DNA of 64,000 nucleotides from an uncultured Alphaproteobacteria bacterium. Lineage in GTDB: Bacteria; Pseudomonadota; Alphaproteobacteria; HIMB59; GCA-002718135. Shown one piece after another: positions 42,607 through 59,753 of this stretch (within the stretch, counting starts at the first letter, position 1; the number at the start of each line of letters is the position of its first letter). Made by a program: the position numbers and the translations under genes. The stretch lies in contig CACGJH010000003.1 of NCBI GenBank assembly GCA_902573325.1, positions 41,592 through 105,591 of the forward strand, in the 5' to 3' direction. The notes below the pieces were generated by a model. It did no database searches and was not told the DNA's origin. It was given only the letters and a program-made list of their open reading frames with translations.

Positions 42607-42629
42607 TCTGTTAATTTTTACTGATTATT

Positions 42630-43074: not shown

Positions 43075-43107
43075 AAAAGAAGGGACACGGCGAATATCCC
43101 TTCTTTT
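43075..43107. terminator. Bidirectional terminator-like hairpin between convergent genes
   Basis: AAAAGAAGGGA-11 nt-TCCCTTCTTTT. Confidence 0.6.
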
Positions 43108-43198
43108 CATTCTTGGTTTATGGATAGAATATAAACCTAGCTAATAAATACCCGATTCTTGTTTTTGGCTCAAATTTTTTTATAAAAAACCTCAATTT

Positions 43199-43822
43199 TT
43201 AATATTTTTGTAATAAAACAATTTTTATTTTTATTTTATTTTTGAAGTCTTTGTTCATGGGTAAATAATGTAAAGGTCGAGAAATTTTAGTAATTTTTAA
43301 TAACTTTTGATGTTTTTTTAAAATACTTAAAAAATCCTGTTTCTCCCATAAATCTATTCTATGGGTAAATAGTACCAAGCCTTTTTCTTTAAGATTTTTA
43401 TTAATATTAGCAAAAAGTTTATCAAAGTTTTTGCAATACGTCATCGAACCAATCAAAGAAATAAGATTAAATTTTATTTTATAATGATGTAATTCTTCAA
43501 AGTTTTTTATTTGTAATTTCGTATAAATTTTTTTTTCTAAAGAAATTTTTAAGCTTTTTTTTGAAATATCTGATCCATATATATGGCTTTTTGGATAAAT
43601 TTTTTTTAATTCAGCACCAAATAAGCCGGTTCCACATGCTAAATCTAAAATATTTTTTGGTTTAAAATTAGTTGTTTCTTTTAAAAATTTAATGCTTTTT
43701 TTAGGTGCTTGATAATTCCATAACTTAAGTGTTGCATCATAATTTTTGGACCAATCATCATAATATTTTTTTGTTTTATTCAAATTGCCAACACCAGAAA
43801 CTAGTGATTTAAAATTACTCAT
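43199..43822 (-). CDS. Class I SAM-dependent methyltransferase
   Basis: YDDWS..YD, ILDLACGTG, GSDIS. Confidence 0.85.
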   Translation of the reverse strand: MSNFKSLVSGVGNLNKTKKYYDDWSKNYDATLKLWNYQAPKKSIKFLKETTNFKPKNILDLACGTGLFGAELKKIYPKSHIYGSDISKKSLKISLEKKIYTKLQIKNFEELHHYKIKFNLISLIGSMTYCKNFDKLFANINKNLKEKGLVLFTHRIDLWEKQDFLSILKKHQKLLKITKISRPLHYLPMNKDFKNKIKIKIVLLQKY

Positions 43823-44621
43823 ATTTTAAAGAAGGAATCTTTTTTCTTATTTTTTTTACATCAGAAATATTAATGGTTGAGTGAAGAATTGCAGGCTTAT
43901 TTTTAGTACTATTTACAATGTTTCCCCATGGATCTGCTAAAAGAGAATATCCATAAGTCTTTCTTTTCATATGATGATTTCCACACATACCTGTTGCTAC
44001 AATAAAAACATTATTCTCTATAGCTCGTGATCTATTCAAAACCTCCCAATGATCTTTTCCGGTTGGTCTAGTAAAAGCAGCAGGAACTAAAATAATTGAA
44101 CAATCTTTTTTAGCAAGCTGCCTATACAAATTAGGAAATCGTAAATCATAACAAATTGTCAATCCTAATTTAATATTATTAATTTTTGTAAAAATTATTT
44201 TATTTCCTGCTTTAAATAAATATGATTCTTGATGTTTTTCATTATTATTAATTTTGACATCAAACATATGAATTTTATCATATGTTTTTTTTATTACTCC
44301 ATGATTATCAATAAAAAAAGATCTGTTAACTAGTTTGCGTTGTTTTTTTACTTTTAAGAGTAAAGAACCAAGATTTATATTAACCTTATTTTTTTTAGCA
44401 AAATTTTTTGCCATTTTTAAAACTGGGCATGTATTTTGATATGGGGCATTTAATAATAAAAAATTTTTATCATTAGTAATAATGTTGGAGCATTCTGGTG
44501 TGCAAATCAAATGAGGTTTAAATTTTAATGTTTTTTTAAAATTTTTTTCTAAATTGTTTGCATTCAAATTTGCTATGTGACTAGCAGAAAATTGAATTTG
44601 AGATATTCTAAGTTTACCCAT
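43815..44621 (-). CDS. Carbon-nitrogen hydrolase (Nit1/YbeM-like, deaminated glutathione amidase-like)
   Basis: E-K-C triad: TPE, YDKIHMFDV, ICYDLRFP; PAAFT.PTG..HW...RAIEN. Confidence 0.88.
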   Translation of the reverse strand: MGKLRISQIQFSASHIANLNANNLEKNFKKTLKFKPHLICTPECSNIITNDKNFLLLNAPYQNTCPVLKMAKNFAKKNKVNINLGSLLLKVKKQRKLVNRSFFIDNHGVIKKTYDKIHMFDVKINNNEKHQESYLFKAGNKIIFTKINNIKLGLTICYDLRFPNLYRQLAKKDCSIILVPAAFTRPTGKDHWEVLNRSRAIENNVFIVATGMCGNHHMKRKTYGYSLLADPWGNIVNSTKNKPAILHSTINISDVKKIRKKIPSLKYE

Positions 44622-44626
44622 TATTT

Positions 44627-45787
44627 TTACTTATATTTAAATAAAAATATAACAGCACAAATAAATACAACAAATGTTAATAAATACATATTTAATGTTA
44701 ATGAATATGTTTCAGCTAGAAAACCAATTCCAGCAGGCAAAATCATTGTAGAAGACAATCCAATTGTTATAAGATTAGTCACAGTCATTGGGATACTTTC
44801 ATTGGATTGTTTAACCGCTTGTCGAATTATTATAGGAACTAAATTTGCAATAGCAAATCCATAAATACATAGAACTGCTAGTATAATGTAGAAGTTATTG
44901 GTTAATAAAGACAAAAACATTATAGCTGCGCCAATCATCACAAAGTGACAACCTACAACTTTTTCAGTGAATAAATTAATCAAAGAATTTGAAAATAAAT
45001 TAGCAAAAATCCCTCCAATGCTAAAAAAGATTAATCCCATACTTGCTAAGTAAAGAGGAGTATTCAAATCTTTTGACAGCCATAATGTCGACCAATCCAT
45101 AATTATTCCACCTGATCCAAAAACAAAAAATAACAAAAATCCAAATAAAAGAATATTCATCTCTGGTAATTTAAATTTCTCACCTTCACCTTTAAAATCT
45201 AAATCTCGGGGTAATCCATAAGAATATACAAAAGAAGAAACTAAGATTGATAAAAAGGATAAGATCGTAAACGATATGTAAGGTTCATAATTATTTCTCA
45301 TTATTAAACCTGCTAATCCCCCTCCAAGGAGAATTCCTAAATTAAATCCCATAGCATAATACGGTGTTATAATTTTTTTAAAATGTCTTTCAATAAGTTG
45401 ACTATGTATACCTCCAATTGGTCCAGATGCGCCCCATCCTATTCCACCAGATATAAAAGTTAATAAAAAATAAAAATATGATGAAGAAATAACAGTCAAT
45501 AAGGCAGAAAATGTAACAATAGGAAAAGCTAAACTCATAACTAATTTAGTTCCATATTTTGGGACTAATATCCTTCCAGCAATTTGGTTAGAAATTATAA
45601 AAAAAATTCCAAAAAGTAATATCGCATAGCTTAAATCAGACTCGTCAATTGAAAGTCTCTCCATATTCCAAGGTGTTATTCCAAAATAACAGCCCACGAC
45701 TATCATTGGATAGGTAGAAGTAATTACAGACGCAATGGTAGCTCTTCTAAAAATTATTTTTTCTTCTAACACAAAATTTTTTACCAA
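44627..45787 (-). CDS. MFS transporter
   Basis: About 12 hydrophobic segments, E/DW motif at start of second half, IGFLAE; start uncertain (TTG 45787 or GTG 45772). Confidence 0.75.
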   Translation of the reverse strand: MVKNFVLEEKIIFRRATIASVITSTYPMIVVGCYFGITPWNMERLSIDESDLSYAILLFGIFFIISNQIAGRILVPKYGTKLVMSLAFPIVTFSALLTVISSSYFYFLLTFISGGIGWGASGPIGGIHSQLIERHFKKIITPYYAMGFNLGILLGGGLAGLIMRNNYEPYISFTILSFLSILVSSFVYSYGLPRDLDFKGEGEKFKLPEMNILLFGFLLFFVFGSGGIIMDWSTLWLSKDLNTPLYLASMGLIFFSIGGIFANLFSNSLINLFTEKVVGCHFVMIGAAIMFLSLLTNNFYIILAVLCIYGFAIANLVPIIIRQAVKQSNESIPMTVTNLITIGLSSTMILPAGIGFLAETYSLTLNMYLLTFVVFICAVIFLFKYK

Positions 45788-46764
45788 CGATGATGCACAT
45801 CATCAAAAAAATATTCTGTGTAAATATTACTAATTTTTTCCATCAAAGAAGAAATTTCATTAATATTTGAAGAAGAAGTATTTAAATTCACATGATCTTT
45901 ATTTTTAGCACCCGGAATAACAACACTAACTGCATCATGCATCAAAATCCATCTTAGCGATAATTGTGATAAAGTTATTTCAGTTGGCAAAATATTTTTT
46001 AAATCTTCAACTGCATCTAATGCTTTGTTAAAATTAACACCTGAAAATGTTTCTCCAACATCAAATGCATCACCATTTATATTATAATTTCTATGATCAT
46101 CAGGAGCAAAAGAAGAATCTTTTGAGAACTTACCTGTTAACAAACCACTTGCAAGAGGCACCCTGACTATAATTGCAACTTTTTTTTCTTTTGCTATTTG
46201 AAATAATTTTTCAGCAGGTTTTTGTCTAAAAATATTAAAAATAACTTGTATCGATTTTGTATTTGGACGTTTGATACAAGCTAAAGCTTCATCAACTGTT
46301 TGAACACTAAATCCGTAATTTTGAATTTTTCCTTTACTCACTAAATAATCTAACATTTCAAATGCATGATCAGATGAATATACTTCGGTTGGAGGACAAT
46401 GCATTTGTAACAGATCAATTGTTTCAACATTAAGATTTGATAAAGATTGATCTACATAAGACTCCATTAATTCCTTATTATAGTATCCCTCGGCTACATG
46501 AGGATTGATTTGTCTCCCAGCTTTTGTTGCCACATAAATTCTTTCAGATACTGATTTAATAAATTCACCTACAAATTTTTCACTTCTACCCATGCCATAG
46601 ACATCAGCAGTATCAAAAAAATTAACACCATTTTCAAATGATGATTTTAATACTTCTTTAGCTTTATCTTCACTAACTTCTCCCCAGTCTGCTCCAATTT
46701 GCCAGCAACCCAATCCAATTTCGGATACGTTCCAATCTAATGATCCAAATTTTCTATATTTCAT
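45781..46764 (-). CDS. Aldo/keto reductase
   Basis: VSEIGLG, FFDTADVYG, ATKAG, DLLQMH, PLASGLLTGK, VIPGAK. Confidence 0.92.
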   Translation of the reverse strand: MKYRKFGSLDWNVSEIGLGCWQIGADWGEVSEDKAKEVLKSSFENGVNFFDTADVYGMGRSEKFVGEFIKSVSERIYVATKAGRQINPHVAEGYYNKELMESYVDQSLSNLNVETIDLLQMHCPPTEVYSSDHAFEMLDYLVSKGKIQNYGFSVQTVDEALACIKRPNTKSIQVIFNIFRQKPAEKLFQIAKEKKVAIIVRVPLASGLLTGKFSKDSSFAPDDHRNYNINGDAFDVGETFSGVNFNKALDAVEDLKNILPTEITLSQLSLRWILMHDAVSVVIPGAKNKDHVNLNTSSSNINEISSLMEKISNIYTEYFFDDVHHRW

Positions 46765-46766
46765 AT

Positions 46767-48926
46767 TTATCCTACAACTATTTCATCAGTGACTAATGTA
46801 CCATCCTCAACAATCAATCCCATAGCTCCTGAGTCAAGAAGATTATTTTTATCTTCATATTCTAAAACTAATTTATTTTCTAAATATGCAGAAAGAACAT
46901 TATCTTTAATTTTAAGAGATAATTTATAATTTTTAAAATATTCTAAATTAAAATCTATCTCCTTTAAAACACTTACTTCATTTACCACTTTTATTAATTG
47001 AAGTTTGTTTGAAGAATTAATTACCAGTCCATAGTATCTATTTAAACCTTGTACTCTTACAGCAAGGCCGCCGGTAGTAAGTCTTTGCACTGCTATATCT
47101 GCGCTAACAGTATAGTTTTTCCAAGCTTCATTACCCGTAATGATAATCCCTCTCCCACTATCTTTTGTTATTCTAAATGTTCTTGCACCTACTTCCCATT
47201 TATCAACAGCATTTACCCAACTTGATTTCCACATAACAGCTTTTGATGTTTTCACACCCCGTTTATGTTCTCCAATATGTTTTGGTTTATAAAATGAACA
47301 ATCTGGTTCTCCCGTAAATGTTAGATAGTTTATTAATAAGCTGCCAGAATTTGCTTCTTCAGATTCAATAGAAAATCCAACTTGAGTAATTGGATTTCCC
47401 TCAGTTGAAGGAATTTTCCATTTTAAGTTATGTGATTTACCTGGATACAAAATTATTTCCTCTGAATTAATTCTTTCATATTGATCATCTTTCCCAAACA
47501 TATTTATGAAACATTTAACATTGATTGGTTTATCTGAACTTGTAACAAAATTAATTTCAGATTCAATTGTTTGACCAGAATATAATAATGGAGATGAAAT
47601 AAAATTATAACTTTGAAAAAATCTCTCTCTAGCTTTCCCCGTTAATTCGTGTAACTCTTGAGGAAAAAATACATCTACCAATGCTTCAGAGAAGACACCG
47701 GGCGCTACTCTATCAAATTTAATCTCAAGGGCTCTTTTTCCAATCTTACTATCATATTTTATATTTTGTACATGAGTTGAAATGTTCTTATTTTCTTTAT
47801 AGTTAGCTCTCCACCCTTGAACTGAACCAGGCATTTCAAAATGAAATCTAGATCCATTTTTAGGCTGAACAATTTCCTCATTGTTCATTCTTTTTGCAGT
47901 ATTAATTACTTTATAAGCTTCAGTTAATGCGTCTGTCTGTGTTTCGCCACCATTTGCCGTAGGGCAATACATTCTATCTTGGATTGGAGAAAGATAATCT
48001 GGGCCATTATTTAATCCCTCAAGTCCATTTTTAATTCCCATCAGGCAACCAACATTTCCTGAATTACAATCTGTATCTCGACCTGCAGTATTAACAATCA
48101 TTAATGTTTTTTGAAGATCATCATCCCCAAATAATAATGATAGAATGATAATAGCATGGTTAGGTATCATGTGACACTCACCTAAATATTTATCATAATC
48201 ATAGTTTTCAGCTAAAAATTCTCTTGCTTGCATCCAGTCACTATTACCTGATCGTATATTTTGTAATTCTCCAATTACTTTGTAAATCTCAGATGTATTT
48301 GGAATATATTTTTTACTTTCATTAATAATTTTATTAATATCTTTTTCAATAAAAGCTAAAGACTCCATAGCGGCTACCATTTGTGCTCCGTAAATCGCTT
48401 CGCCATCATGACTTACGCTTGCAGCTTTTTTTGCAAGATCAGCGGCTTTTTCTGGATCTCCTGGTGATACTAAAGCCCATCCATCAATAAATATTTGAGC
48501 TCCTATTTGTTGTGCAACAACTTCTCCATTTGTTTCAATAGAACCACTCATTGGAGCGTGAATGCCTGCCTTAAGGTTTTGGAACGCAGTATCCTCAGCT
48601 GAATGACCTCTACCTCCCCACCACAAAACAGTTTTATTTTCTATAAGATTATTTAACCAACTTTGACCAATTTGTTTTGGCGTAATGTTTGGATCATAAT
48701 TATTTTCTCTTAAAGCTCTTAAAAAAGTAAAGGTACCAGTAATATCATCATCTGTTACTACTAAAGGAACATTTAATTTCTCATTTACATAGTAATTAAT
48801 CTCACCTAACTCTTCTAATATTCTTTCATGAGTCCATTGTTCAAAAGGACGTCCTAGATAAACACCAATTAACTTGCCAAGTACCCCTGCATATACTTTT
48901 TCTTCATACACTTTATCTAGTTTCAT
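46767..48926 (-). CDS. ADP-ribosylglycohydrolase-family protein with long C-terminal extension (paralogue D)
   Basis: GK.IGV.LG.PFE, TDDD and DTDCN Mg-binding motifs, SVSHDGE; SD AAGGGGAG. Confidence 0.85.
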   Translation of the reverse strand: MKLDKVYEEKVYAGVLGKLIGVYLGRPFEQWTHERILEELGEINYYVNEKLNVPLVVTDDDITGTFTFLRALRENNYDPNITPKQIGQSWLNNLIENKTVLWWGGRGHSAEDTAFQNLKAGIHAPMSGSIETNGEVVAQQIGAQIFIDGWALVSPGDPEKAADLAKKAASVSHDGEAIYGAQMVAAMESLAFIEKDINKIINESKKYIPNTSEIYKVIGELQNIRSGNSDWMQAREFLAENYDYDKYLGECHMIPNHAIIILSLLFGDDDLQKTLMIVNTAGRDTDCNSGNVGCLMGIKNGLEGLNNGPDYLSPIQDRMYCPTANGGETQTDALTEAYKVINTAKRMNNEEIVQPKNGSRFHFEMPGSVQGWRANYKENKNISTHVQNIKYDSKIGKRALEIKFDRVAPGVFSEALVDVFFPQELHELTGKARERFFQSYNFISSPLLYSGQTIESEINFVTSSDKPINVKCFINMFGKDDQYERINSEEIILYPGKSHNLKWKIPSTEGNPITQVGFSIESEEANSGSLLINYLTFTGEPDCSFYKPKHIGEHKRGVKTSKAVMWKSSWVNAVDKWEVGARTFRITKDSGRGIIITGNEAWKNYTVSADIAVQRLTTGGLAVRVQGLNRYYGLVINSSNKLQLIKVVNEVSVLKEIDFNLEYFKNYKLSLKIKDNVLSAYLENKLVLEYEDKNNLLDSGAMGLIVEDGTLVTDEIVVG

Positions 48927-48950
48927 TATTTCTCCCCTTTTTTTATAAAT

Positions 48951-51113
48951 TTATTCTATAGATATTGAATTACTTTGAATTGCTCCATTTTCAGTTAAAA
49001 ATCCCATCATACCTTCCTCAAATGGATTAGATGAATCTTCTGCTTCAATTAGTAATTGATTATCAACATAACCTTGAAGTTTATTGCCATCTACTTTAAA
49101 TTTTAAATCATATTCTTTAAAATATTCTAAATTAAAATCTATTTCATTAAGTGTTTTTAATTCATATTCCATTTTATTAATCTTGAGTTTATTTTTAGAA
49201 GTTAACTCAAGAGAATAATATCTTTTTAAACCTTGAGACCTAACAATTAATCCAGCGGCAGATGCAAGAGGAATAGATATCTTTGAAGAAATTGAATAAT
49301 CTTTCCATGTCTCACTCCCAGTCATTATGTGACCACGACCTATACCCCTTACTACTTTAAATGATTCATTATGTCGGTATTGCCATTTATCTACATCATT
49401 GACCCAAGCTCTTTTCCATAATTGACCGTAAACCTCCTCTTTATAAAATATGCCTCTTTTATATTCATCTATATGGTCAGGTCTTCTAAAAGTCATTTTT
49501 GGAGTTCCAGAGATATTTAAATAATTAATTAAAATTTTTCCTGAAACATTATCATCAGAATTAATACTAATACCTATCTGTCCTATTGGATTTGCAAAAG
49601 TATCAGGAACAACCCATTCAATTGTATTATTTTCTTTACTCCTTAAATTAAAATCATCAGAAGATAATTTGATTAATTTATCTTCTTCTCCCCAATATTT
49701 AATAAATAAATTAATTCGCAAATCTTTTTCAGATTGAGATATAATTTGTGCTTTGATCTTTTGTCCAGAATATACAATAGGACAAGCGACATAATCATAA
49801 TGAAAATATCTTTGAACTTGATAGCCTTCTAATTTTGTAAACCATTCTGGGAAAAAACTATCTACAAAAATTTCACTTGCAAGACCAAATGATAGATCAT
49901 TAAAACTGACTTGTAACGCTCTCGTTCCATTATCTGATTTATAATCAACATTAGATAAGCTTGTATTTAGATTGTTATCATTTGATTTATCAACCATCCA
50001 TCCTTGTGTAGATGTTTCCATTTCAAAATTATATCTAGCATTATTTTTGATAACCTTGCTTTCAAGACCATTCATTTTTCTTGTTATATTAATAATGTTC
50101 TGACTTTCCAATAAAGCATCAGTCATTGTTTCAGAACCATATGCTGTTGGTAAATAAATGATATCATTTACAGGAGTTATATAGTCTGGACCCTGTTTAA
50201 TTCCTTCTAATCCATTTTTTATTCCTAAGATACAACCAACATTTCCTGAGTTACAATCTGTATCCCATCCTGCTGTATTGACGATCATTAAGGATTTTTG
50301 AAAATCATCATCTCCGAATAACAACGATAAAATAATTAGTGCGTGATTAGGAACGATATGACAATTACCTGGAAATTTACTATACCCATACTTATCTTCA
50401 ATCTTGGATCTAGCTTGTTCCCAATCTAAATTACCAGAGCTCCAATCTTGGATATCAGAAATCAATTTATAAATTATTGAATCATTTGGAACAAATTTTT
50501 TACTGTCCTCTATTATTTTTTTTATATCTTTTTCTATAAATGCATAGGCTTCCATAGCAGCAACAACTTGAGCACCGTAAACAGATTCACCGTCATGACT
50601 AACACTCCCTGCTCTTTTTGCTAGATCAACAGCTTGTTCTGGATCACCTGGAGAAACCATTCCCCAGCCATCAATAAATATTTGCGCTCCGATTTGTTCC
50701 GCAATTACTTTACCATTTTTAGCAATGGAACCACTTTCAGGTGCGTGGATACCTTGTTTAAGATTCATGTATGCGCTTTCTTCAGTTAAAATTCCTTTTC
50801 CTGCCCACGCAAGTACAGTTTGATTTTCTAAACAATAATTTAACCAAGTTTGTCCAATTTGTTTTGGCGAAATATTTTTATCAAAATTAAAATGTTTAAG
50901 AGCATTTATAAATCTAAAAGTACCTGTTAGATCATCATCTGTGACATGTATTGGAAAATCAAGTTTATCATTTACGTAATAATTAATTGGACCAAGTTCT
51001 TCCATGATCCTGTCATAATACCAACCTTCAAATGGTCTACCTAAATAAACACCAATAATTTTTCCTAGGACACCAGCATAAACTTTTTCTTCAAATACTT
51101 TATCTAAATTCAT
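48951..51113 (-). CDS. ADP-ribosylglycohydrolase-family protein with long C-terminal extension (paralogue C)
   Basis: TDDDL, GWDTDCN, SVSHDGE; SD GGAGGGAGG. Confidence 0.85.
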   Translation of the reverse strand: MNLDKVFEEKVYAGVLGKIIGVYLGRPFEGWYYDRIMEELGPINYYVNDKLDFPIHVTDDDLTGTFRFINALKHFNFDKNISPKQIGQTWLNYCLENQTVLAWAGKGILTEESAYMNLKQGIHAPESGSIAKNGKVIAEQIGAQIFIDGWGMVSPGDPEQAVDLAKRAGSVSHDGESVYGAQVVAAMEAYAFIEKDIKKIIEDSKKFVPNDSIIYKLISDIQDWSSGNLDWEQARSKIEDKYGYSKFPGNCHIVPNHALIILSLLFGDDDFQKSLMIVNTAGWDTDCNSGNVGCILGIKNGLEGIKQGPDYITPVNDIIYLPTAYGSETMTDALLESQNIINITRKMNGLESKVIKNNARYNFEMETSTQGWMVDKSNDNNLNTSLSNVDYKSDNGTRALQVSFNDLSFGLASEIFVDSFFPEWFTKLEGYQVQRYFHYDYVACPIVYSGQKIKAQIISQSEKDLRINLFIKYWGEEDKLIKLSSDDFNLRSKENNTIEWVVPDTFANPIGQIGISINSDDNVSGKILINYLNISGTPKMTFRRPDHIDEYKRGIFYKEEVYGQLWKRAWVNDVDKWQYRHNESFKVVRGIGRGHIMTGSETWKDYSISSKISIPLASAAGLIVRSQGLKRYYSLELTSKNKLKINKMEYELKTLNEIDFNLEYFKEYDLKFKVDGNKLQGYVDNQLLIEAEDSSNPFEEGMMGFLTENGAIQSNSISIE

Positions 51114-51139
51114 TTTCCTCCCTCCAAATGAATATTATC

Positions 51140-53344
51140 TCAATTTATAGAAATTTCATCACTAATTATAGTTCCATTTTCAACAATACAGCCTATCATA
51201 CCTTTTTCAAATTGATTTGATTTATCTTCTACCTCAATTAACAATTCATTGTTAATAAAGCCTTTTAAAAAATTATTATCAGCCTCAAAACGCATAAAGT
51301 ATTCCTCAAATGGCTCAAAAGAAAAATCTACTTCTTTTAATATTTTTAGACCATATTCCATTTTATTAATCTGTAATTTATTTGTTGATTTAATTTCTAA
51401 TGAATAATACCTCTGCAAACCCTGAGATCGAATTACTAATCCTCCAGATGATGCTAAACGAAACATTATTTTTGAAGTTACCGAATAATTTTTCCAATCA
51501 GAGGATCCTGTAAATACATGCCCTCTTGATGCATTTTTGATTAACCCAAATGAATTTTTTCCATAACTATACCATTTATCTACATCATTTACCCAAGCCA
51601 ATTTCCATAACTGACCATAATATTTTTCATCATCTGGAATATAAACACCATTTGTTAAAGATTTAATATTATGACTTGTCGTATTTACTTTGTCGTTTTT
51701 AATATGCTCAGGTTTTTTAAAAGTCATCTTAGGTATTCCAGAAATATCAATATAATTTATTAATATTTTACCTGATACTTGTTCATCAGATGCAATACTA
51801 TATCCAAGTTGATTAATGGGATTTGATAATGTATCAGGAATAGTCCATTCTATTTTTTTTGTTCCATTTTCTGAGAAGTAAAATTCCTCCGAGCCTAATT
51901 TAAATAACTTATCTCCTTCACCATAATACTTAATAAATAATTTAATTTTTATATTTTTTTTCGTCTTCGATATAATTTCTGTTTTAATTTTTTGACCTGA
52001 GTAAACTGTAGGACAACCAACAAAACTGTAAACCATAAGCATCATTTCTTGTTGCTCATTCAATCTTGTAAATTCTTCTGGGAAAAATGTATTCACATAT
52101 AATTCACTATTAATTCCTTTTGTAAGATTGTTAAAATTTATCTCTAAAGCTCTTTTGCCAATAGCAGAGATATGTTCACAGTTTTTTAAAAAAGTATTTT
52201 GATTATTGTTATTTGATTTATCAATCATCCATCCTTGCGTAGATGTTTCCATTTCAAAATTATATCGAGCATTGTTTTTAATAGATTGATGTTCAAGGCC
52301 ATCTAATTTTCTTCTAATATTAATTATATTCTGGCTTTCAGTTAATGCATCAGTCATAGTTTCTGAACCACGAGCAGATGTAATATATAAAGTGTCATTA
52401 ACAGGTGTAATAAAATCTGCACCTTTTTGAATGCCCTCTAGACCATTTTTAATACCCATATAACAGCCAACATTTCCAGAGTTACAATCTGTATCCCACC
52501 CTGCTGTATTAACAATCATTAACGTTTTTTGAAAATCATCATCTCCAAATAAAAGAGCTAGAATTATCAAAGCATGATTTGGCACAATATGACAAAATCC
52601 TTGGTATTTGTCATATCCATAGTGTTCTTCAATTTTGAATCTAGCTTGTTCCCAATCTAAATTACCAGAACTCCAATCTTGAATATCTGAAATTAATTTA
52701 TAAATCACAGAATTCTTAGGAATGTAACTTTTACAATGCTCAATTATTTTTTTTGTATCGCTTTCAATAAAAGCCATTGCTTCCATAGAAGCAACCATTT
52801 GAGCACCATAAACAGACTCACCATCATGACTAACACTCCCTGCTCTTTTTGCTAAATCAGATGCAAAGTCTGGATCACCTGCTGCAATCATTCCCCAACC
52901 ATCAATAAATATTTGTGCACCAATTTGCTCTGCAATAATTTTACCATTCCTTTTAATTGATCCACTCTCTGGGGCTTCAATACCTTCTTTTAAATTTAAA
53001 TACGCACTCTCTTCGGTCAATAATCCCTTTCCAGCCCATGCTAAAACAGCCTGATTTTCTAAACAATAATTTAACCACGTATCACCAATTTGCTTTGAAG
53101 TTATATTTCGATTAAAATTAAAGTCTTTAAAAGCTTTAATAAAAGTAAAAGTACCATTTAGATCATCATCTGTAACATGAAGAGGTAAATTTAATTTGTC
53201 GTTTACGTAATAATAAATAGGCCCAAGTTCTTTCATTATTTTATCATAGGGCCAACCCTCAAATGGTCTTCCTAAATAAACTCCAATAATTTTTCCTAAG
53301 ACACCAGCATAAACTTTCTTTTCAAAATTATTATCTAATTTCAT
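51140..53344 (-). CDS. ADP-ribosylglycohydrolase-family protein with long C-terminal extension (paralogue B)
   Basis: TDDDL, GWDTDCN, SVSHDGE. Confidence 0.85.
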   Translation of the reverse strand: MKLDNNFEKKVYAGVLGKIIGVYLGRPFEGWPYDKIMKELGPIYYYVNDKLNLPLHVTDDDLNGTFTFIKAFKDFNFNRNITSKQIGDTWLNYCLENQAVLAWAGKGLLTEESAYLNLKEGIEAPESGSIKRNGKIIAEQIGAQIFIDGWGMIAAGDPDFASDLAKRAGSVSHDGESVYGAQMVASMEAMAFIESDTKKIIEHCKSYIPKNSVIYKLISDIQDWSSGNLDWEQARFKIEEHYGYDKYQGFCHIVPNHALIILALLFGDDDFQKTLMIVNTAGWDTDCNSGNVGCYMGIKNGLEGIQKGADFITPVNDTLYITSARGSETMTDALTESQNIINIRRKLDGLEHQSIKNNARYNFEMETSTQGWMIDKSNNNNQNTFLKNCEHISAIGKRALEINFNNLTKGINSELYVNTFFPEEFTRLNEQQEMMLMVYSFVGCPTVYSGQKIKTEIISKTKKNIKIKLFIKYYGEGDKLFKLGSEEFYFSENGTKKIEWTIPDTLSNPINQLGYSIASDEQVSGKILINYIDISGIPKMTFKKPEHIKNDKVNTTSHNIKSLTNGVYIPDDEKYYGQLWKLAWVNDVDKWYSYGKNSFGLIKNASRGHVFTGSSDWKNYSVTSKIMFRLASSGGLVIRSQGLQRYYSLEIKSTNKLQINKMEYGLKILKEVDFSFEPFEEYFMRFEADNNFLKGFINNELLIEVEDKSNQFEKGMIGCIVENGTIISDEISIN

Positions 53345-53356
53345 ACTCTTATATTT

Positions 53357-55522
53357 TTACTCTATGCTTATTGAATTGGATGATAATGTTCCATCTTGTG
53401 TAACAAAACCTATCATACCTGTTTCAAAAGAATTATCTTTATCGTGTGTTTCAATTAATAACTTATCATCAACATAACCCAATAATTTATTTCCATTCAC
53501 TTCAAATTTTAATTCATATTCCTTATAAAACTCAAAGTTAAAATCGATTTCTTTTAATGTTTCTATTTCATAAAACATTTTATTAATCTGCAGTTTATTA
53601 TTGGAAGTAAGTTCTAAAGAGTAATATCGCTTTACTCCTTGAGATCTAATTATTAATCCTCCAGCTGATGCTAATGGAAAGTTCACTTTTGAAGTAACGG
53701 TGTAATCTTTCCAGGAAGATGATCCTTGTAAAATATGACCTCTACCAACTCCATTGATAATTTTAAATGACTCTAACCACCTATATTGCCATTTATCGAT
53801 ATCATTTACCCATGCTCTTTTCCATAATTGACCATAAAATTCTTGGTTAAAAAAATATCCATTTTTTGATGCATTTTCTATGTGTTCAGGTCTTTTAAAT
53901 GTAACTTTTGGTGTGCCCGTAATATCAAGAAAATTAATTAGTAACTTTCCTGAAGTATTAACATCTGCTGATATGACAAATCCAATTTGTCCAATTGGAT
54001 TTGCATGTGTATCTGGAACTATCCATTCAATTGATTTTACTTCATTATTTGAAAGCTCATATTCTTCAGCATCTATTTGTTTTAATTTATCTTCTTCACC
54101 CCAATATTTTATAAATAAAGTAACTTTAATATTATTTTTACTTTTTGAAATAATTTCAGTTTTAATCTTTTGTCCACTATGGACAATTGGACATCCAACA
54201 AAGTCATAGTGAAAAAATTTCTGCCGCTGAGATCCTTTTAGTTCAGTAAACCAGTCTGGAAAAAATGTATCAACATAGGCAACACTTGAATGCCCGATTG
54301 ACAAATTAGAAAAGTCAATTTCTAATGCTCTTTCACCAATCTTGGTTTCATAAGGAACATTAGTGATTGTAGTATTTAAATTATTATCATTAGTCTTATT
54401 AATTTTCCAAGCTTGAGTAGAGCCTGGCATTTCAAAATTATATCTTGCATTTTCTTTTACTATCTTGTTTTCCATACCATTAATTCGTCTAGCAATATTA
54501 ACAATATTTTGACTTTCTCTTAATGCGTCAGTCATCGTTTCAGCACCATTACTTGTTGGAAGAAAAATTGTATCATTAACTGGTGTAATATAGTCGGGTC
54601 CGTCTTTAATACTCTCTAATCCATTTTTAATTCCAAGAAAACATCCGACATTTCCTGAATTACAATCTGTGTCCCAACCTGAAGTATTTACAATCATTAA
54701 GGATTTTTGAAAGTTATCATCTCCAAATAGTAATGCTAAAATAATTAATGCATGATTTGGTACAATATGAACGCCGCCTATAAATTTTTCATAACCATAA
54801 ATATCATCTATTTTTTCTCTTGCTTGTTCCCAGTCTAGATTACCAGAACTCCAATCTTGAATATCAGATATAAGTTTAAAAATTGTTGAATCTTTAGGGA
54901 TATATCTTTTGCAATGCTCAATAATTTTTTTTGTATCTTTTTCTATAAACGCCATTGCTTCCATTGCAGCAACAACTTGAGCAGCATAAACAGATTCACC
55001 ATCATGACTTACACTTCCAGCTTTTTTTGCAAAATCAGCTGCTTGATCTGGATCACCTGGCGAAACTAATCCCCATCCATCAATAAATATTTGAGCACCT
55101 ATTTGCTCAGCAACAATTCGACCATTTGTTTTTATAGAACCACTATCTGGAGCATGAATACCTTGTTTAAGATTTTGATAAGCGGTATCTTCTGATGATG
55201 TTCCTTTACCACCCCACCATAAAACAGCTTGGTTTTCCAAACAATAATTTAACCATGTTTGACCAATTTGTTTAGAAGAAATATTTTTATTAAAATTAAA
55301 ATCTTTTAGAGCGTTGATGAATCTAAACGTTCCAGTCAAATCATCATCGGTGATTTGAACAGGCATATTTAATTTATCATTTACATAATAATTAATTGGG
55401 CCTAATTCTTTTATAATTCTATCATACCACCAACCCTCAAAAGGTCTGCCAAGATAGACACCTATGATTTTACCTAAAACTCCTGAATATACTTTCTCCT
55501 CATATTCTTTGTTAAGTTCCAT
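53357..55522 (-). CDS. ADP-ribosylglycohydrolase-family protein with long C-terminal extension (paralogue A)
   Basis: TDDDL, GWDTDCN, SVSHDGE; SD GGGAGG. Confidence 0.85.
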   Translation of the reverse strand: MELNKEYEEKVYSGVLGKIIGVYLGRPFEGWWYDRIIKELGPINYYVNDKLNMPVQITDDDLTGTFRFINALKDFNFNKNISSKQIGQTWLNYCLENQAVLWWGGKGTSSEDTAYQNLKQGIHAPDSGSIKTNGRIVAEQIGAQIFIDGWGLVSPGDPDQAADFAKKAGSVSHDGESVYAAQVVAAMEAMAFIEKDTKKIIEHCKRYIPKDSTIFKLISDIQDWSSGNLDWEQAREKIDDIYGYEKFIGGVHIVPNHALIILALLFGDDNFQKSLMIVNTSGWDTDCNSGNVGCFLGIKNGLESIKDGPDYITPVNDTIFLPTSNGAETMTDALRESQNIVNIARRINGMENKIVKENARYNFEMPGSTQAWKINKTNDNNLNTTITNVPYETKIGERALEIDFSNLSIGHSSVAYVDTFFPDWFTELKGSQRQKFFHYDFVGCPIVHSGQKIKTEIISKSKNNIKVTLFIKYWGEEDKLKQIDAEEYELSNNEVKSIEWIVPDTHANPIGQIGFVISADVNTSGKLLINFLDITGTPKVTFKRPEHIENASKNGYFFNQEFYGQLWKRAWVNDIDKWQYRWLESFKIINGVGRGHILQGSSSWKDYTVTSKVNFPLASAGGLIIRSQGVKRYYSLELTSNNKLQINKMFYEIETLKEIDFNFEFYKEYELKFEVNGNKLLGYVDDKLLIETHDKDNSFETGMIGFVTQDGTLSSNSISIE

Positions 55523-55537
55523 CTTCCTCCCATTAAA

Positions 55538-56380
55538 CTAACCTTTTGTAGCACCACTGGTTAACCCAGCGATGAATCGTCTTTGAAAAAACATAAATAA
55601 AATAGCAATTGGTGCAGCCATTAAAATAGATGCAGCGCTCACTAGTCCATAATCATTTGCAAACCTGCTTTGAAAAGCAAATAATATAGATGAAATAGGT
55701 TTATAATCATCCGTAATAATAAAGGTAATTGCAAATAAAAATTCGTTCCAAACATTTAATGATACAATTAAAGCTGTAGTTAAAAATACAGGCCAAGATA
55801 ATGGTAACGCTACTCTTGTAAATAATTGCATTGTTGAAGCTCCATCAAGTTTCGCAGCTTCAAAGAGTTCAGTTGGTAATTGAAGCATATAGGATCGAAT
55901 TAAAAAAGTTGCAAAGGGTGCATTTAAGGCACTATAAATAATAATTAACCCAATCCTTGTGTCCAGAAGATACAAGCTTTTCCACATAAGAAATAATGGT
56001 AAAATATATAATTGTGCGGGTATACTAATTCCAACTAATAGATATAAACCAACAACAACTGTTTGAATGCCTCTAGGATTTAAAGCGGCTAAACTAAATG
56101 CAGCAAGACCAGAAACTGTTAAATTTAAAATTAACGTTCCTACAACAAGAGTCATTGAGTTAAAAAATATTTGAGTATAGTTACCATTTACCCAAGCATC
56201 ATAATAATTCATCAATCTTATTTCAGATGGAAAGCCCAAAGGATTGGAACCAAATTCCTCAACAGGTTTTACAGAGTTAAAAATTAATACTAGTAATGGC
56301 AATATAATAGTTAAGGCCATAAAAAATAAAATGGAATGGTTTATATAACTAGATCTTTGTCTAAATTTTGCAGTTGCCAT
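55538..56380 (-). CDS. Carbohydrate ABC transporter permease (MalG-like)
   Basis: LPTELFEAAKLDGA EAA motif, WNEF, FQRRFIAGLTSGATKG. Confidence 0.93.
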   Translation of the reverse strand: MATAKFRQRSSYINHSILFFMALTIILPLLVLIFNSVKPVEEFGSNPLGFPSEIRLMNYYDAWVNGNYTQIFFNSMTLVVGTLILNLTVSGLAAFSLAALNPRGIQTVVVGLYLLVGISIPAQLYILPLFLMWKSLYLLDTRIGLIIIYSALNAPFATFLIRSYMLQLPTELFEAAKLDGASTMQLFTRVALPLSWPVFLTTALIVSLNVWNEFLFAITFIITDDYKPISSILFAFQSRFANDYGLVSAASILMAAPIAILFMFFQRRFIAGLTSGATKG

Positions 56381-56389
56381 TTGTAATTT

Positions 56390-57268
56390 TTATACCTCCC
56401 AACCCAAACGCCTTAGAAGTGCAAAGAAGCCAACTATTATACCCACATAGAAGAACATCATAACACCGATAGTAGATGCATAGCCAACATTCATTCGTTG
56501 AAACGCTTGAGAGTATAGATGATTAGCTACAACTTCTGAGCTATATGCTGGGCCTCCCATTGTTAAAATATAAACATAATCAAATGTTGGAACAGACCAA
56601 ATAATTATAATGATTAAAGATAATATAAAAATTGGTCTTATCATTGGTATAGTAATGTATCTAAATTTTTGAAATTTCGTTGCACCTTCAATATCTGCAG
56701 CTTCATAAAGAGACTCATCTACTTGATACATACCAGTTAAATAAATGATAACTAAGAAACCCCAGAAGTGCCACATGTCAACCCAGGCAACGGCGTATAA
56801 CGCTGTTTCTTTCATAGCAAAAGGTGATTTTGAGAGAAAATCAATACCTTGGTTTTCAAACCATCCGCCCAGTCCATGTTTTGGATGAAAGATATATCTC
56901 CAAATTAAACAATTAACTATACTTGCTAAAATATAAGGGAAAAAATAAACGAGTCTGTAAAAAAGCTGCCCTCTTTTAATTCCAGTTAAGAGATAAGCTA
57001 TGATCAAAGCGACAATTACTGGAATAGTTAAAAACATTATTGTCCATATGAAATTATGATAAACAGCCTTTTTGAAAATTCTATCCCTAAATAATTCTTC
57101 AAAATTTTCTAAACCTACATAGTTTATTTTTCCAAAACCATTCCAATCAGTTAAACATAAGAGTAAACTGAGTATAGATGGAAATGCTATAACAAAGAAA
57201 TGTATGAACAATACTGGCATTAAAAAATACCATGATATTGCGTTTATATTAGTCAAAAACTTTGGCAT
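56390..57268 (-). CDS. Carbohydrate ABC transporter permease (MalF-like)
   Basis: VGLENF, LYEAADIEGA, FRYITIP, FDYVYILT.GGP. Confidence 0.93.
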   Translation of the reverse strand: MPKFLTNINAISWYFLMPVLFIHFFVIAFPSILSLLLCLTDWNGFGKINYVGLENFEELFRDRIFKKAVYHNFIWTIMFLTIPVIVALIIAYLLTGIKRGQLFYRLVYFFPYILASIVNCLIWRYIFHPKHGLGGWFENQGIDFLSKSPFAMKETALYAVAWVDMWHFWGFLVIIYLTGMYQVDESLYEAADIEGATKFQKFRYITIPMIRPIFILSLIIIIIWSVPTFDYVYILTMGGPAYSSEVVANHLYSQAFQRMNVGYASTIGVMMFFYVGIIVGFFALLRRLGWEV

Positions 57269-57285
57269 ATTTTTTATATTTTTAA

Positions 57286-57312
57286 AATAAGGGGAATAAA
57301 ATTCCCCTTATT
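57286..57312 (-). terminator. Intercistronic stem-loop after the SBP gene (partial terminator / mRNA stabiliser)
   Basis: Perfect IR AATAAGGGGAAT-aaa-ATTCCCCTTATT between SBP and first permease. Confidence 0.7.
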
Positions 57313-57327
57313 GAAAATAAATTGGAA

Positions 57328-58656
57328 TTATCTTTTTCCAACTGGAACTAATGCATCGTCTTCACGTGCTTTGTCCCATAGTCTTTGTGATTCTTCCATG
57401 AACTCAAGCGGAGTAATATCCCCTGCCCAAACAACTTCCATATCTTTCCAAATGTGAACACCTGGATCATTAGGATAGAAAGTCCATGTCGTGTAACCAT
57501 AATTTCCAGATCCTGTAGCTTCAGCAAATTCAGTTAAGAATCTTTTTTGTCTTGGATCAATATTTGGATCAAAGTCACTGTCTTCATAATGTAGTGGCAT
57601 CAACCATGCGCCGTAGCCTAATTGACCAGTTACACTAAGAACTCTTGCTCTATCTGATAGAATCCAATCAATAACCTTTGCAGCAGCTTCAGGATTTTTA
57701 GATGCAGCATTTACTGACATTGTTCCACCTGTTGCAAGTTGATAATTTGGTCTATCTCCTGCTTGAGGATGAAGTATAGGCAAAGCAGCCCAATCCCAAT
57801 CATCAGAACTTTCAGCAAAGTTTGTAGCAGTTACATTGAAGCCCCAAGTTCCGATCATTAACATTGCTGATTCTCTGTTAACAAATTCACCATTGAAGTC
57901 GTCCCAACCTAGAGAGTAATATGTCTCTAAACCACCAGACCAATAACCATCATCGACCATGTGTTTTCTTAAAAGTTCAATTGACTCTACAAATTCTGGA
58001 TCAGTCCATTTTTTTTCACCAATTAATGCTTTGTAAACATTATCTGGTCCAGCGTAAGTGTTAAAATAGTTACCTACTAAGTGCTCGTGTGTTGGCTGCC
58101 AACCAGTAGATCCATAAGCATAAGGATTCATACCTTTAGCTTTTATTTTTGCAGCTAATGCTTCAACCTCTTCTAAATTATTAGGTAGACTCCATCCATT
58201 TTCTTCGAACAACGTTTTATTATAAAAATAAATCATTGTTTCATAGTTTTTTGGAATTGAGTATAGTTCACCATTAAACACACCTGAATTGTAAGCCCAC
58301 TCTAAAAGTTTATCTTGCCAACCATATTGATCAGCATACTCTTGCAATGATTTTACAAGTCCAGCATCTTGATAAATTTTTATGTAAGATGCACCTGGTG
58401 TATCAAAAATATCAGGACCACTTCCAGAAAGAAGAGCTGGTCTAATTGTATCGTTGATATCTTCTTTAAAAACAACTTCTAATTCAATATCATCATGTTC
58501 AGCATTAAATGCGTCAACAAAGAATTCTTGTACTACTGGGTCAGTTGTTGCATCACTTTCCATCCACCAGACTACTTTTGTAGCAGCAAACGTTGAAGTT
58601 GCAAAAAATGCAGTAAGAACAAAAGATAAGAAAAAATTAAAAATTTTATTCATCAT
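57328..58656 (-). CDS. Carbohydrate ABC transporter substrate-binding protein (CUT1)
   Basis: Signal peptide MNKIFNFFLSFVLTAFFATSTFA, SGSGPDIF, LYSIP, YNKTLFE..G..LP, MIGTW; SD GGAGGG favours start at 58656 or 58653 over 58665. Confidence 0.9.
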   Translation of the reverse strand: MMNKIFNFFLSFVLTAFFATSTFAATKVVWWMESDATTDPVVQEFFVDAFNAEHDDIELEVVFKEDINDTIRPALLSGSGPDIFDTPGASYIKIYQDAGLVKSLQEYADQYGWQDKLLEWAYNSGVFNGELYSIPKNYETMIYFYNKTLFEENGWSLPNNLEEVEALAAKIKAKGMNPYAYGSTGWQPTHEHLVGNYFNTYAGPDNVYKALIGEKKWTDPEFVESIELLRKHMVDDGYWSGGLETYYSLGWDDFNGEFVNRESAMLMIGTWGFNVTATNFAESSDDWDWAALPILHPQAGDRPNYQLATGGTMSVNAASKNPEAAAKVIDWILSDRARVLSVTGQLGYGAWLMPLHYEDSDFDPNIDPRQKRFLTEFAEATGSGNYGYTTWTFYPNDPGVHIWKDMEVVWAGDITPLEFMEESQRLWDKAREDDALVPVGKR

Positions 58657-58957
58657 TCCCTCCATTAATAGAAAAATTATACCCTAAATATGAACCCTGT
58701 AAATCTATTTATGCAAGATAATGAATAAAAAAATCAAGTAATATATATGTTTGCGGCATTTTTTTTATAGCAAAAATATCATTTGTTCCCTTATTAAATC
58801 AAAAAAATAGTTAAAGGAAAAATAAAAAACTAAAACAAAAAAAATTATTATAATTGACCATATTAAAAATTTATTCATTTTTTGTTTTTATAAAATAGAT
58901 ATTATTTAAGTATAATAAATATAAATTTTAATATATTAACAAATTTCAACTGTAATT

Positions 58958-59746
58958 ATGAAAAACAAATTATTTGATATTTGGAAGCAAGATAAGGCTT
59001 CAATAAATGCTTGGTTATCGATACCAAATTCTTTTACTGCTGAAGCCTTTGGGAAAATGGGCTGGGATTCAGTAACTATCGATATGCAGCATGGCCAGAA
59101 TGATTATTCAAGTTCAATTGCAATGATTCAAGGGTTAACTAATAGTGATACTGTACCTATGACAAGAGTTCCATGGAACGAGCCAGGTATTATTATGAAG
59201 ATGTTAGATTTAGGCATTCAAGGAATTATTGCACCAATGATTAATACTAAAGAGGACTGTGAAAAGTTTGTTTCATATTGTTATTATCCTCCAATAGGTC
59301 AAAGAAGTTTTGGTCCAATGAGAGCTCAAGTAGTTTATGGTTCAGATTACTATCAACACGCAAATGATAATATTGTAAGTTTGGCAATGATCGAAACGAA
59401 ACAAGCAGTTGAAAATTTAGATTCCATTCTTTCAGTTCCAAATTTGACTGGTATCTATATTGGGCCTGCAGACATGAGTTCTTCTTATGGCTTACCGCCT
59501 AAATTTGATGTTCGTGAAGATCCAGTATTTTCAAACATTAAAATGATTGCAAAAAAAGCAAAAGAAAAAGGAAAGATTGCAGGTATCCATAATGGATCAG
59601 TAAAGTATATGAAAGAAATGATGGAATATGGTTTTCAATTTACCACCTTACTTTCTGATTTTAGAATGATGACATCACATGCTGAAAGTTTATTAAAAGA
59701 ATTGAAAGATGTAGATACTAAATCTGATAATACTAGCGCATATTAA
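58958..59746 (+). CDS. HpcH/HpaI-family class II pyruvate aldolase
   Basis: IDMQHG, RVPWN, LDLG..GIIAPM, YPP.G.RS.GP, MIET, YIGPAD. Confidence 0.9.
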   Translation: MKNKLFDIWKQDKASINAWLSIPNSFTAEAFGKMGWDSVTIDMQHGQNDYSSSIAMIQGLTNSDTVPMTRVPWNEPGIIMKMLDLGIQGIIAPMINTKEDCEKFVSYCYYPPIGQRSFGPMRAQVVYGSDYYQHANDNIVSLAMIETKQAVENLDSILSVPNLTGIYIGPADMSSSYGLPPKFDVREDPVFSNIKMIAKKAKEKGKIAGIHNGSVKYMKEMMEYGFQFTTLLSDFRMMTSHAESLLKELKDVDTKSDNTSAY

Positions 59747-59753
59747 TTGTCGC

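Follow-up and report, generated by a model that had tools for sequence, protein, structure and literature searches.

The closest described relatives of the system analyzed here are the enzymes of the ADP-ribosylglycohydrolase (ARH) superfamily and the yegTUV operon of Escherichia coli, in which YegU is a short ARH protein. This operon combines the ARH-family gene with a nucleoside-type transporter of the major facilitator superfamily (MFS), a PfkB kinase and the GntR-type regulator GgaR. According to the available part of the source, the function of yegTUV is still unknown (PMC10819704), and the characterized ARH-fold enzymes all bind ribose via a di-metal site, as stated in the accessible part of another report (PMC8319183). 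In this study, we analyzed a stretch of 64,000 nucleotides (the window) from an uncultured alphaproteobacterium, in which the genes of a CUT1-type ATP-binding cassette (ABC) importer are followed by four tandem ARH-family genes, whose products are designated ARH-long. We propose with moderate confidence that the importer feeds cytoplasmic ARH-fold glycosidases, that the sugar released is most likely a furanose with ribose as the best guess, and that an aldo/keto reductase (AKR) and an MFS transporter encoded at the end of the same run handle the other product.

ARH-long and YegU are likened by operon logic alone. The combination of a transporter, an ARH-family protein and a PfkB kinase was seen in 12 of 56 loci counted outside the genus of the window, with the kinase no more than three open reading frames (ORFs) from the ARH-long gene. 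The block in the window differs from yegTUV in that it has no PfkB kinase and possesses an ABC importer of the CUT1 type, whereas yegTUV has an MFS transporter. In other phyla a LacI regulator is found where yegTUV has GgaR, and ARH-long, unlike YegU, is a 720-aa enzyme of three domains.

Genetic organization of the block

The block is an uninterrupted minus-strand run of nine genes in the ORF list. The genes are, in the order of the run:

57328..58665, minus strand: substrate-binding protein (SBP), CUT1-type, periplasmic, 445 aa as called; PF01547 SBP_bac_1, E 1e-30
56390..57268, minus strand: ABC permease 1 (perm1), UgpA/MalF-like; PF00528; best NCBIfam matches UgpA and GlcT, both below cut-off
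55538..56380, minus strand: ABC permease 2 (perm2), UgpE/MalG-like; PF00528, E 1e-17; best NCBIfam match GlcU, below cut-off
53357..55522, minus strand: ARH-long paralogue A (ARH_A), 721 aa; PF03747, E 1.7e-45; tree clade A; omega 0.055-0.058
51140..53344, minus strand: ARH-long paralogue B (ARH_B), 734 aa; PF03747, E 3.3e-45; tree clade B; omega 0.069-0.105
48951..51113, minus strand: ARH-long paralogue C (ARH_C), 720 aa, the modelled copy; PF03747, E 7.8e-49; tree clade C; omega 0.050-0.076
46767..48926, minus strand: ARH-long paralogue D (ARH_D), 719 aa; PF03747, E 3.2e-50, and PF21708, E 2.7e-6; tree clade D; omega 0.050-0.077
45781..46764, minus strand: AKR; PF00248, E 1.6e-60; best match in the Protein Data Bank (PDB) IolS 1pyf, 7e-36
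44627..45787, minus strand: MFS transporter; PF07690 MFS_1, E 2.4e-19

The intergenic gaps from SBP through AKR are 59, 9, 15, 12, 26, 24 and 2 nt, and AKR and MFS overlap by 7 nt. A first-pass annotation of the window had read this gene order with short gaps and four intact ARH-family genes of 719-734 aa from the letters and the ORF list. Its observation of the locus is confirmed: Pfam agrees with every assignment, all gaps are at most 59 nt, and all four ARH-long proteins match PF03747 (ADP_ribosyl_GH) with 155-172 bits, far above the cut-off of 26.2 bits. Its interpretation is partly supported, as described below.

The importer resembles those CUT1 importers that share an ATPase of the MalK/MsiK type, since SBP_bac_1 and two BPD_transp_1 components are encoded in the block and the ATPase outside the operon. 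No ABC ATPase was found inside the block, and the neighboring 604-aa ABC protein is of the ABC-F type. Three MalK-type ATPases bearing the OB_MalK domain are encoded elsewhere in the genome, so that all components of a CUT1 importer are present, with the ATPase in trans. The start of the SBP is probably M4 or M5 (ATG 58656 or 58653), and the called start at 58665 lies inside a GGAGGG Shine-Dalgarno sequence. The SBP carries a Sec signal peptide, ending in ...TFA before AT, so that the mature protein would begin at A28. Its best sequence matches in the PDB are sugar- or oligosaccharide-binding SBPs, namely 4g68 (8.5e-22) followed by 3vxb and 7ehp NagB1. Unlike the SBPs of characterized CUT1 importers, it received no equivalog assignment; its best NCBIfam model, NgcE, scored 83 bits against a cut-off of 400. 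A single SBP serves all four ARH-long enzymes.

The genome comprises 1.47 Mb with 29% G+C and is 89.7% complete; the G+C content of the window is also about 29%. It contains 16 SBP_bac_1 matches, which, together with the three MalK-type ATPases, is an unusually strong orientation towards sugars for a marine alphaproteobacterium with a streamlined genome. The AEGEAN-169/HIMB59 group is described as sugar-oriented in the available part of its report, and the traits of the window genome resemble it (PMC10308909). We infer on this basis that the window genome belongs to that group. The term 'ADP-ribosyl' has 0 occurrences in the available part of the same text (PMC10308909).

Domain architecture and active site of the ARH-long proteins

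In each of the four copies PF03747 matches residues 14-307 (E 3e-45 to 3e-50); a genome-wide Pfam search returned exactly four PF03747 matches, all of them in the block. The C-terminal ~370 residues of each protein constitute two beta-sandwiches of carbohydrate-binding type, the last of which is like a carbohydrate-binding module (CBM) of family CBM66. These two domains make up half of each protein and are absent from the first-pass account. An AlphaFold model of paralogue C was obtained from a 65-sequence alignment of the family with a pLDDT of 92.8 and a pTM of 0.93; the single-sequence model reached only 34.6. The model displays three packed domains (ARH 2-348, beta-sandwich ~355-536, lectin ~540-720), encoded as follows:

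50070..51113, minus strand: ARH catalytic domain of paralogue C, residues 1-348; aligned with VIA-align to ARH3 6g1p and MJ1187 1t5j
49506..50051, minus strand: middle CBM-like beta-sandwich of paralogue C, residues ~355-536; aligned with VIA-align to 2c26 and 1wky
48954..49496, minus strand: C-terminal CBM66-like ConA-type lectin domain of paralogue C, residues ~540-720; aligned with VIA-align to 4azz/4b1m

The catalytic domain shares the all-helical fold of ARH3, ARH1, DraG, Tri1 and MJ1187, with Z 26-31 and rmsd 2.9-3.6 A over 277-316 residues. The superpositions on ARH3 6g1p (Z 30.9) and MJ1187 1t5j (Z 30.7) have an rmsd of 2.9 A over 294-302 residues at 15-18% identity, and those on DraG have Z 27.5-27.8; over the three proteins the rmsd ranges from 2.9 to 3.3 A. 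Departures from the superfamily are found both in the proteins and in their context. ARH-long is only 10-19% identical to its members, carries V22 and C287 at two motif positions, possesses the ~370 extra residues in two CBM-like domains, and is encoded in a sugar-uptake operon rather than beside a transferase partner.

The middle domain (model residues 355-536) superposes on 2c26 with Z 17.5 and on the CBM of mannanase 1wky with Z 15.9. The C-terminal domain superposes on the CBM66 of Bacillus subtilis levanase SacC (4azz, 4b1l, 4b1m), and for 4azz/4b1m this reaches Z 21 and rmsd 1.8 A over 151 of ~161 residues with 24% identity; at the sequence level, phmmer links it to the levanase CBM66 at E 1e-3. 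Galactocerebrosidase GALC (GH59, 3zr5) is the top Foldseek match over both beta domains, and PF21708, the C-terminal lectin domain of GH59, was detected in 38 of the 65 family members, with PF03747 in all 65. In the CBM66 and GH59 proteins the module accompanies a GH32 or GH59 catalytic domain, whereas that of ARH-long is joined to an ARH domain and lies in the cytoplasm. When the C-terminal module alone was searched against 1.84 billion representatives, 580 representative clusters matched at E <= 1e-30. No other catalytic partner was found in the 10 odd-length matches scanned of the best 150: seven have a partial PF03747 and three start inside the conserved end of the ARH domain, which identifies them as ARH-long fragments.

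Three giant proteins, P0124 (3465 aa), P0157 (3027 aa) and P0267 (1912 aa), contain 7 to 13 repeats of the CBM66-like lectin domain but no ARH domain, and possibly function as adhesin-like proteins of the cell surface.

The TDDD and DTDCN motifs noted in the first-pass annotation, T58-D59-D60-D61 and D284-T285-D286-C287-N288, are identical across the four copies, and none of the four genes looks decayed. E29, D60, D61, D284, D286, S172-H173 and H252/N256/H257 do not vary in any of the 65 family members; a total of 95 positions are invariant over the alignment and are kept in the four window copies by construction. The acidic T-D-D-D and D-T-D motifs of the putative di-metal site resemble those of the ARH superfamily, and T58-D59-D60-D61, D284-T285-D286 and E29 are invariant or almost invariant in the family, but the position of the Ser/Thr ligand is taken by C287. 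A profile made from the ARH domain only reached one solved structure by sequence, MJ1187 (E 1e-4), and in this alignment E29 and D284/D286 correspond to its 'PTE' and 'DTD', the glutamate thus falling on the 'P-x-E' of MJ1187. For the assignment of residues in ARH-long, the positions of MJ1187 were taken to be equivalent to those of ARH3. The available part of the source gives for human ARH3 the roles of D34, the catalytic E41 and the metal ligands T76, D77, D78 and D-x-D-T317, and names F143, S148, Y149 and G150 as contacts to adenosine and diphosphate (PMC8319183).

Searches of the PDB by sequence, whether with the full protein or with a profile of the entire family, returned only CBM66 and a marginal MJ1187 match. 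None of the NCBIfam models, the DraG TIGR02662 and Tri1 NF041672 equivalogs included, matched any of the four proteins at E <= 0.01, and clusters of the ESM Atlas were unnamed or labelled 'ADP-ribosylglycohydrolase' only, with no functional lead. The ARH fold starts at about residue 4 and no signal peptide precedes it, in agreement with the cytoplasmic location proposed earlier.

Linkage to sugar importers in other phyla

A full-length query retrieved 7218 clusters at E <= 0.001 among 8000 candidates scored. Relatives of ARH-long occur in at least 432 species genomes of several phyla and are common in marine metagenomes. At ~45% full-length identity, carriers were found in Chloroflexota, among them the cultured Anaerolinea thermolimosa, and in Bacillota, SAR324, Poribacteria, Nitrospirales and Chthonomonadales. 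For the neighborhood survey all ORFs of 59 loci outside the genus were clustered, and 56 of them were counted; in the other three an overlapping antisense ORF displaced the ARH ORF in ORF picking.

A CUT1 permease lies immediately upstream of the ARH-long gene on the same strand in 21 of the 56 loci, and no more than three ORFs away in 25; an SBP is found within this distance in 20. The transporter genes are orthologous to those of the window (32-52% identity), and the linkage of importer and ARH gene, which the first-pass annotation had set as a check of its reading, is conserved in several phyla. LacI regulators were found in 17 of the 59 loci; in 6 of 56 the ARH gene is at most three ORFs away. 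GFO/IDH/MocA oxidoreductases (4/56) and short stand-alone ARH genes (5/56) were also found within three ORFs, and seven of the 56 loci have two or more ARH-long ORFs. The locus of Anaerolinea thermolimosa IMO-1 (L054) combines two ARH-long genes with LacI, SBP and permease genes. The twelve loci with a PfkB kinase divide into two kinds. True ribokinases adjoin ARH-long in three of them (L033, L047 and L052), with 340-373 bits against the equivalog cut-off of 299.65; the kinases of the other nine are divergent, with a best ribokinase score of 68 bits. Homologues of AKR, MFS or HpcH were found beside the ARH gene in none of the 59 loci; in locus L035 an AKR of 27% identity lies at a distance of ~7 kb. 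The literature yielded no description of the ARH-long architecture or of an ARH-fold glycosidase, and no characterized pathway with the same architecture was found there, as the first-pass annotation had supposed.

Two further arrangements were noticed in these loci. In six loci of Chloroflexota (L040, L044, L056, L057, L083 and L085) a second, short ARH gene, represented by a 376-aa protein at L044:8753-9883, immediately precedes ARH-long in the same operon; the short ARH of L044 weakly matches both the DraG and the Tri1 models, and the two ARH types may act together in those bacteria. In six loci of Anaerolineae (L069, L071, L072, L078, L080 and L083) two complete tandem SBP-permease-permease sets lie upstream of a single ARH-long gene and a divergent PfkB gene.

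Boundaries of the block and copy-number variation

Among the same-genus genomes, 13 of 24 carry ARH-long; with this query it was found in none of 16 genomes of the sister family. The block sits at one hot-spot with the following flanks, the two nearest being conserved housekeeping genes:

58958..59746, plus strand: HpcH/HpaI aldolase (HpcH), left flank; PF03328; divergent from the block
43815..44621, minus strand: carbon-nitrogen hydrolase (CN-hydrolase), right flank; PF00795
43199..43822: methyltransferase, flank; the tightly packed run extends through CN-hydrolase into this gene

Four ARH-less genomes of the genus with a syntenic region, 72-83% complete, were examined. All four show the order ABC-F, HpcH, CN-hydrolase, methyltransferase, DtxR, ArsP and EPSPS, with HpcH at 69-75% identity beside ABC-F and CN-hydrolase 0.1-1.2 kb from HpcH. 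The site between HpcH and CN-hydrolase holds ~100 bp in one of them (L115:8328-8430), an unrelated secreted protein of 355 aa in another (L116:15015-16082), and a ~1.2-kb gap in the remaining two. AKR and MFS are absent from the site in the ARH-less genomes; both follow the last ARH gene in the carriers of the genus. In the remaining same-genus genomes the hot-spot is occupied by an importer/ARH block of 9-15 kb, in which one, two or four ARH-long genes are always located between the transporter and AKR-MFS.

Because the ARH-less genomes read ABC-F, HpcH, CN-hydrolase, the unit of presence and absence is SBP through MFS, 44627-58665, a movable or accessory segment of 14 kb. HpcH, CN-hydrolase and methyltransferase are conserved flanks outside the system. 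The divergent HpcH gene is present where the first-pass annotation placed it. Its proposed role as an aldolase catabolizing the released sugar is rejected, since this flank is found in all four examined genomes of the genus without the block. The participation of AKR and MFS in the pathway stands in part: they travel with the block inside the genus, but no homologue adjoins an ARH gene in the 59 loci outside it. They are lineage-specific passengers or partners, with a pathway role that is lineage-specific at best.

AKR homologues with 61-63% identity also occur in three ARH-less genomes, in other contexts, and were treated as paralogues. In one ARH-less genome of the genus (G019, L097:3821-10228) another CUT1 SBP-permease-permease set is followed, ~2.4 kb downstream and after two ORFs of ~260 aa, by an AKR with 63% identity; proximity to sugar importers may be a recurrent feature of AKRs in this lineage.

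A maximum-likelihood tree was constructed from 32 rows, leaving out the near-duplicates L011, L023, L029, L027 and L028. All ARH-long copies of the genus fall in one clade (support 100/99) with the topology (D,(single-copy type,(L026,(A,(B,C))))), in which D diverges earliest. Two-copy genomes have C+D and four-copy genomes A+B+C+D, and every paralogue type has orthologues in other genomes. Judged from this tree, the four copies arose inside the lineage by an old, monophyletic expansion. The SBP is 87-99% identical between two-copy and four-copy blocks. Whole-gene omega against orthologues (Nei-Gojobori) is 0.05-0.105, and by domain 0.02-0.05 for ARH and 0.04-0.18 for the beta domains; on these estimates all four paralogues are under purifying selection. 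Between paralogues, the ARH domain is 63-80% identical and the beta-sandwich domains 36-67%. The polymorphism of zero, one, two or four enzyme copies at one hot-spot constitutes a natural experiment linking gene content to substrate range.

RNA-library coverage and candidate regulatory signals

Parts of the window were found in twelve RNA-library runs. Contigs from four runs of four studies (>=92% identity) cover SBP, both permeases, the four ARH genes, AKR and MFS, and bridge the perm2/ARH_A, ARH_B/ARH_C, ARH_D/AKR and AKR/MFS junctions. For the co-expression that the first-pass annotation proposed to check in metatranscriptomes, this amounts to coverage of all nine genes and four junctions; a single transcript is not proven by contigs. 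Some bins are uncovered in some runs, and nothing is concluded from these gaps. In four RNA libraries the SBP shows the highest contig word depth, a quantity unable to rank expression.

Contigs of two studies end at 58655 and continue into adapter, a weak hint of a 5' end and hence of a very short SBP leader or none. Just upstream of the SBP, at 58676..58703 on the minus strand, lies the best promoter-like site of the region (TTTACA-16-TATAAT, 11/12). It is a candidate promoter only, because the total of such sites in the region is no higher than in shuffles (103 vs 101). A small GC hairpin with a T-rich tail was also seen at 57292-57307 on the minus strand, in the 59-nt gap between SBP and perm1, and may be an attenuator giving surplus SBP transcript; terminator-like sites of the region are no more numerous than chance overall (9 vs 5.7 +/- 2.5). 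An Rfam scan of 42000-62000 at E <= 1 gave 0 matches to any family, and hence no riboswitch.

Proposed function and alternative explanations

In the pathway that we propose, the SBP and the two permeases would take up one small carbohydrate-type compound or several related ones, with energy from one of the three MalK-type ATPases whose genes lie elsewhere, and the four cytoplasmic paralogues would each hydrolyze a glycosidic bond of the imported compound. The released sugar would most likely be a furanose, and ribose could be phosphorylated by the genome's own ribokinase, which is encoded elsewhere and scores 311 bits against the equivalog cut-off of 299.65; the four PfkB genes of the genome are located on other contigs, with none in the block. 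AKR and MFS plausibly reduce and/or export the other product. A catabolic glycosidase is preferred over an eraser of protein modifications because ARH-long is paired with an importer, LacI and a sugar kinase, and because it is cytoplasmic and combines retained acidic metal motifs with CBM-type domains. The gene content, the domains, the linkage to the importer across the family, the age of the paralogues with the selection on them, the limits of the block and its presence in RNA libraries were observed here; hydrolysis of glycosides other than those of ADP-ribose, ribose as the product, a division of labor between paralogues and the functions of AKR and MFS are inferred.

The paralogues most likely share chemistry and glycone and differ in the accepted aglycone or linkage, because the catalytic domain is conserved and the beta-sandwich domains have diverged. 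The earlier idea that each paralogue may cleave a different aglycone agrees with this pattern of divergence. Ribose is plausible as the released sugar on a minority of the evidence, and is the best single guess because the metal site of the characterized ARH enzymes is occupied by ribose and a true ribokinase gene accompanies ARH-long in three loci. The wide distribution, the polymorphism of one, two and four copies and the single SBP for four enzymes point beyond the first-pass account.

A number of findings weigh against the proposed glycosidase pathway. No permease lies within three ORFs in 31 of the 56 loci outside the genus, many of which are short contigs. A true ribokinase was found in only three of the 56 loci, nine carry a divergent PfkB, and the block in the window has no kinase. 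The linkage to AKR and MFS is confined to the genus of the window. One SBP for four enzymes fits awkwardly with four different aglycones, and the RNA-library contigs are no proof of a single transcript since such libraries can contain DNA. In the active site, Val (V22) invariably takes the place of the canonical Asp of 'GDALG', and Cys (C287) that of the Ser/Thr metal ligand, so that the chemistry of ARH-long may differ from that assumed. These two substitutions might mark a switch away from ADP-ribose substrates. We know of no ARH-fold enzyme that acts on a simple glycoside, and no 'ribofuranosidase' paper was found in the literature.

We further suggest, more tentatively, that ARH-long founds a new class of glycoside hydrolases with the di-metal ARH fold. 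It would act as a (ribo)furanosidase in the cytoplasm, with the two CBM-like domains building the site that recognizes the aglycone. Abundant streamlined marine bacteria, taking up the substrate by a dedicated ABC importer, would then harvest an unrecognized pool of small molecules containing ribose or furanose in dissolved organic matter, and the alleles of one, two and four copies would be niche-partitioning variants, each added copy broadening the set of aglycones used. If ARH-long is a true glycosidase, it would represent a new catalytic scaffold for carbohydrate catabolism and a specific route, open to experiment, for the uptake of carbon from seawater by highly abundant oligotrophs; the locus hints at an unrecognized food source there. 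New in this study are the block boundaries, the rejection of the aldolase, the order of duplications, the selection per domain, the split of the kinases, the V22/C287 signature and the coverage by RNA libraries.

The same logic of importer and ARH-fold glycosidase may apply to a sugar other than ribose, such as another furanose or a hexose, e.g. a fructofuranoside, an arabino- or galactofuranoside or a compatible-solute glycoside; we consider this unlikely but still a serious rival. It is favored by the kinases, nine of the twelve linked ones being divergent PfkB proteins (68 bits vs 299.65), by the GFO/IDH/MocA oxidoreductases within three ORFs in 4/56 loci, and by the nearest solved SBPs, which bind sugars or oligosaccharides. 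The C-terminal domain is closest to CBM66, a levanase module, but this likeness is one of fold, at 23-24% identity. The binding of ribose by all characterized ARH-fold enzymes, as far as the available part of the source goes (PMC8319183), and the true ribokinases adjoining ARH-long in three loci speak for ribose.

Less probable still is that the four paralogues act sequentially on the linkages of one imported oligosaccharide or oligomer, or form a hetero-oligomer. This would explain why one SBP and one permease pair serve one, two or four enzymes, with SBPs 87-99% identical between two-copy and four-copy blocks, and it is consistent with the stepwise gain of copies, D+C first and then A and B, and with chitin-oligosaccharide binders among the closest solved SBPs. 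However, one enzyme appears sufficient, because single-copy blocks are kept in several genomes and most other phyla are single-copy, only seven of 56 loci having two or more.

We give little credence to classical ADP-ribose-directed hydrolases, acting on proteins, small molecules or imported compounds that contain ADP-ribose, such as metabolites derived from NAD, for which the link to the transporter would be secondary. Membership in PF03747, a fold like that of ARH3 and DraG, and the retained metal motifs and catalytic Glu are what such enzymes would show. Ugp-type CUT1 importers can carry phosphodiesters, and the best NCBIfam matches of the permeases include UgpA and UgpE. However, a neighborhood with LacI, a sugar SBP and a sugar kinase points to catabolism, CBM-type domains account for half of each protein, and four copies in a 1.47-Mb genome are hard to square with an enzyme of regulatory reversal. 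No NCBIfam model, the DraG and Tri1 equivalogs included, was matched at E <= 0.01. The first-pass annotation had reported no draT, nif or toxin ADP-ribosyltransferase (ART). This holds for the window, where Pfam detected no DraT, nif or ART context among the 19 proteins scanned and no transferase is present; for the 89.7%-complete genome, searches with PF07357 and PF01129 gave 0 matches, but no control genome matched either, so that the DraT and ART searches are without a positive control. The only NifH-family match in the genome (28.5 bits) was discarded as a generic P-loop stretch, of a kind found in all 14 controls.

It is very improbable that the ARH-long proteins are non-hydrolytic sugar-binding or sensor pseudoenzymes that retain or sense the imported compound in the cytoplasm; V22 and C287, the lack of a regulator in the window and the existence of a non-enzymatic ARH-fold member, jellyfish crystallin J1, would fit, but none of the 65 sequences, drawn from several phyla, has lost the acidic metal ligands or the catalytic Glu, constraint is strongest on the ARH domain (omega 0.02-0.05), and in other phyla a LacI regulator is already in the operon.

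Neighboring genes

Two features outside the block were noted. An ArsP_2-type exporter with ten transmembrane segments is encoded divergently from a DtxR/iron-dependent-repressor regulator (41416-43034), and this pair is found beside the hot-spot in all same-genus genomes examined. An ORF of 122 aa with no Pfam family is located at 61762-62130 on the minus strand, between the ABC-F gene and a DsbA-like gene.

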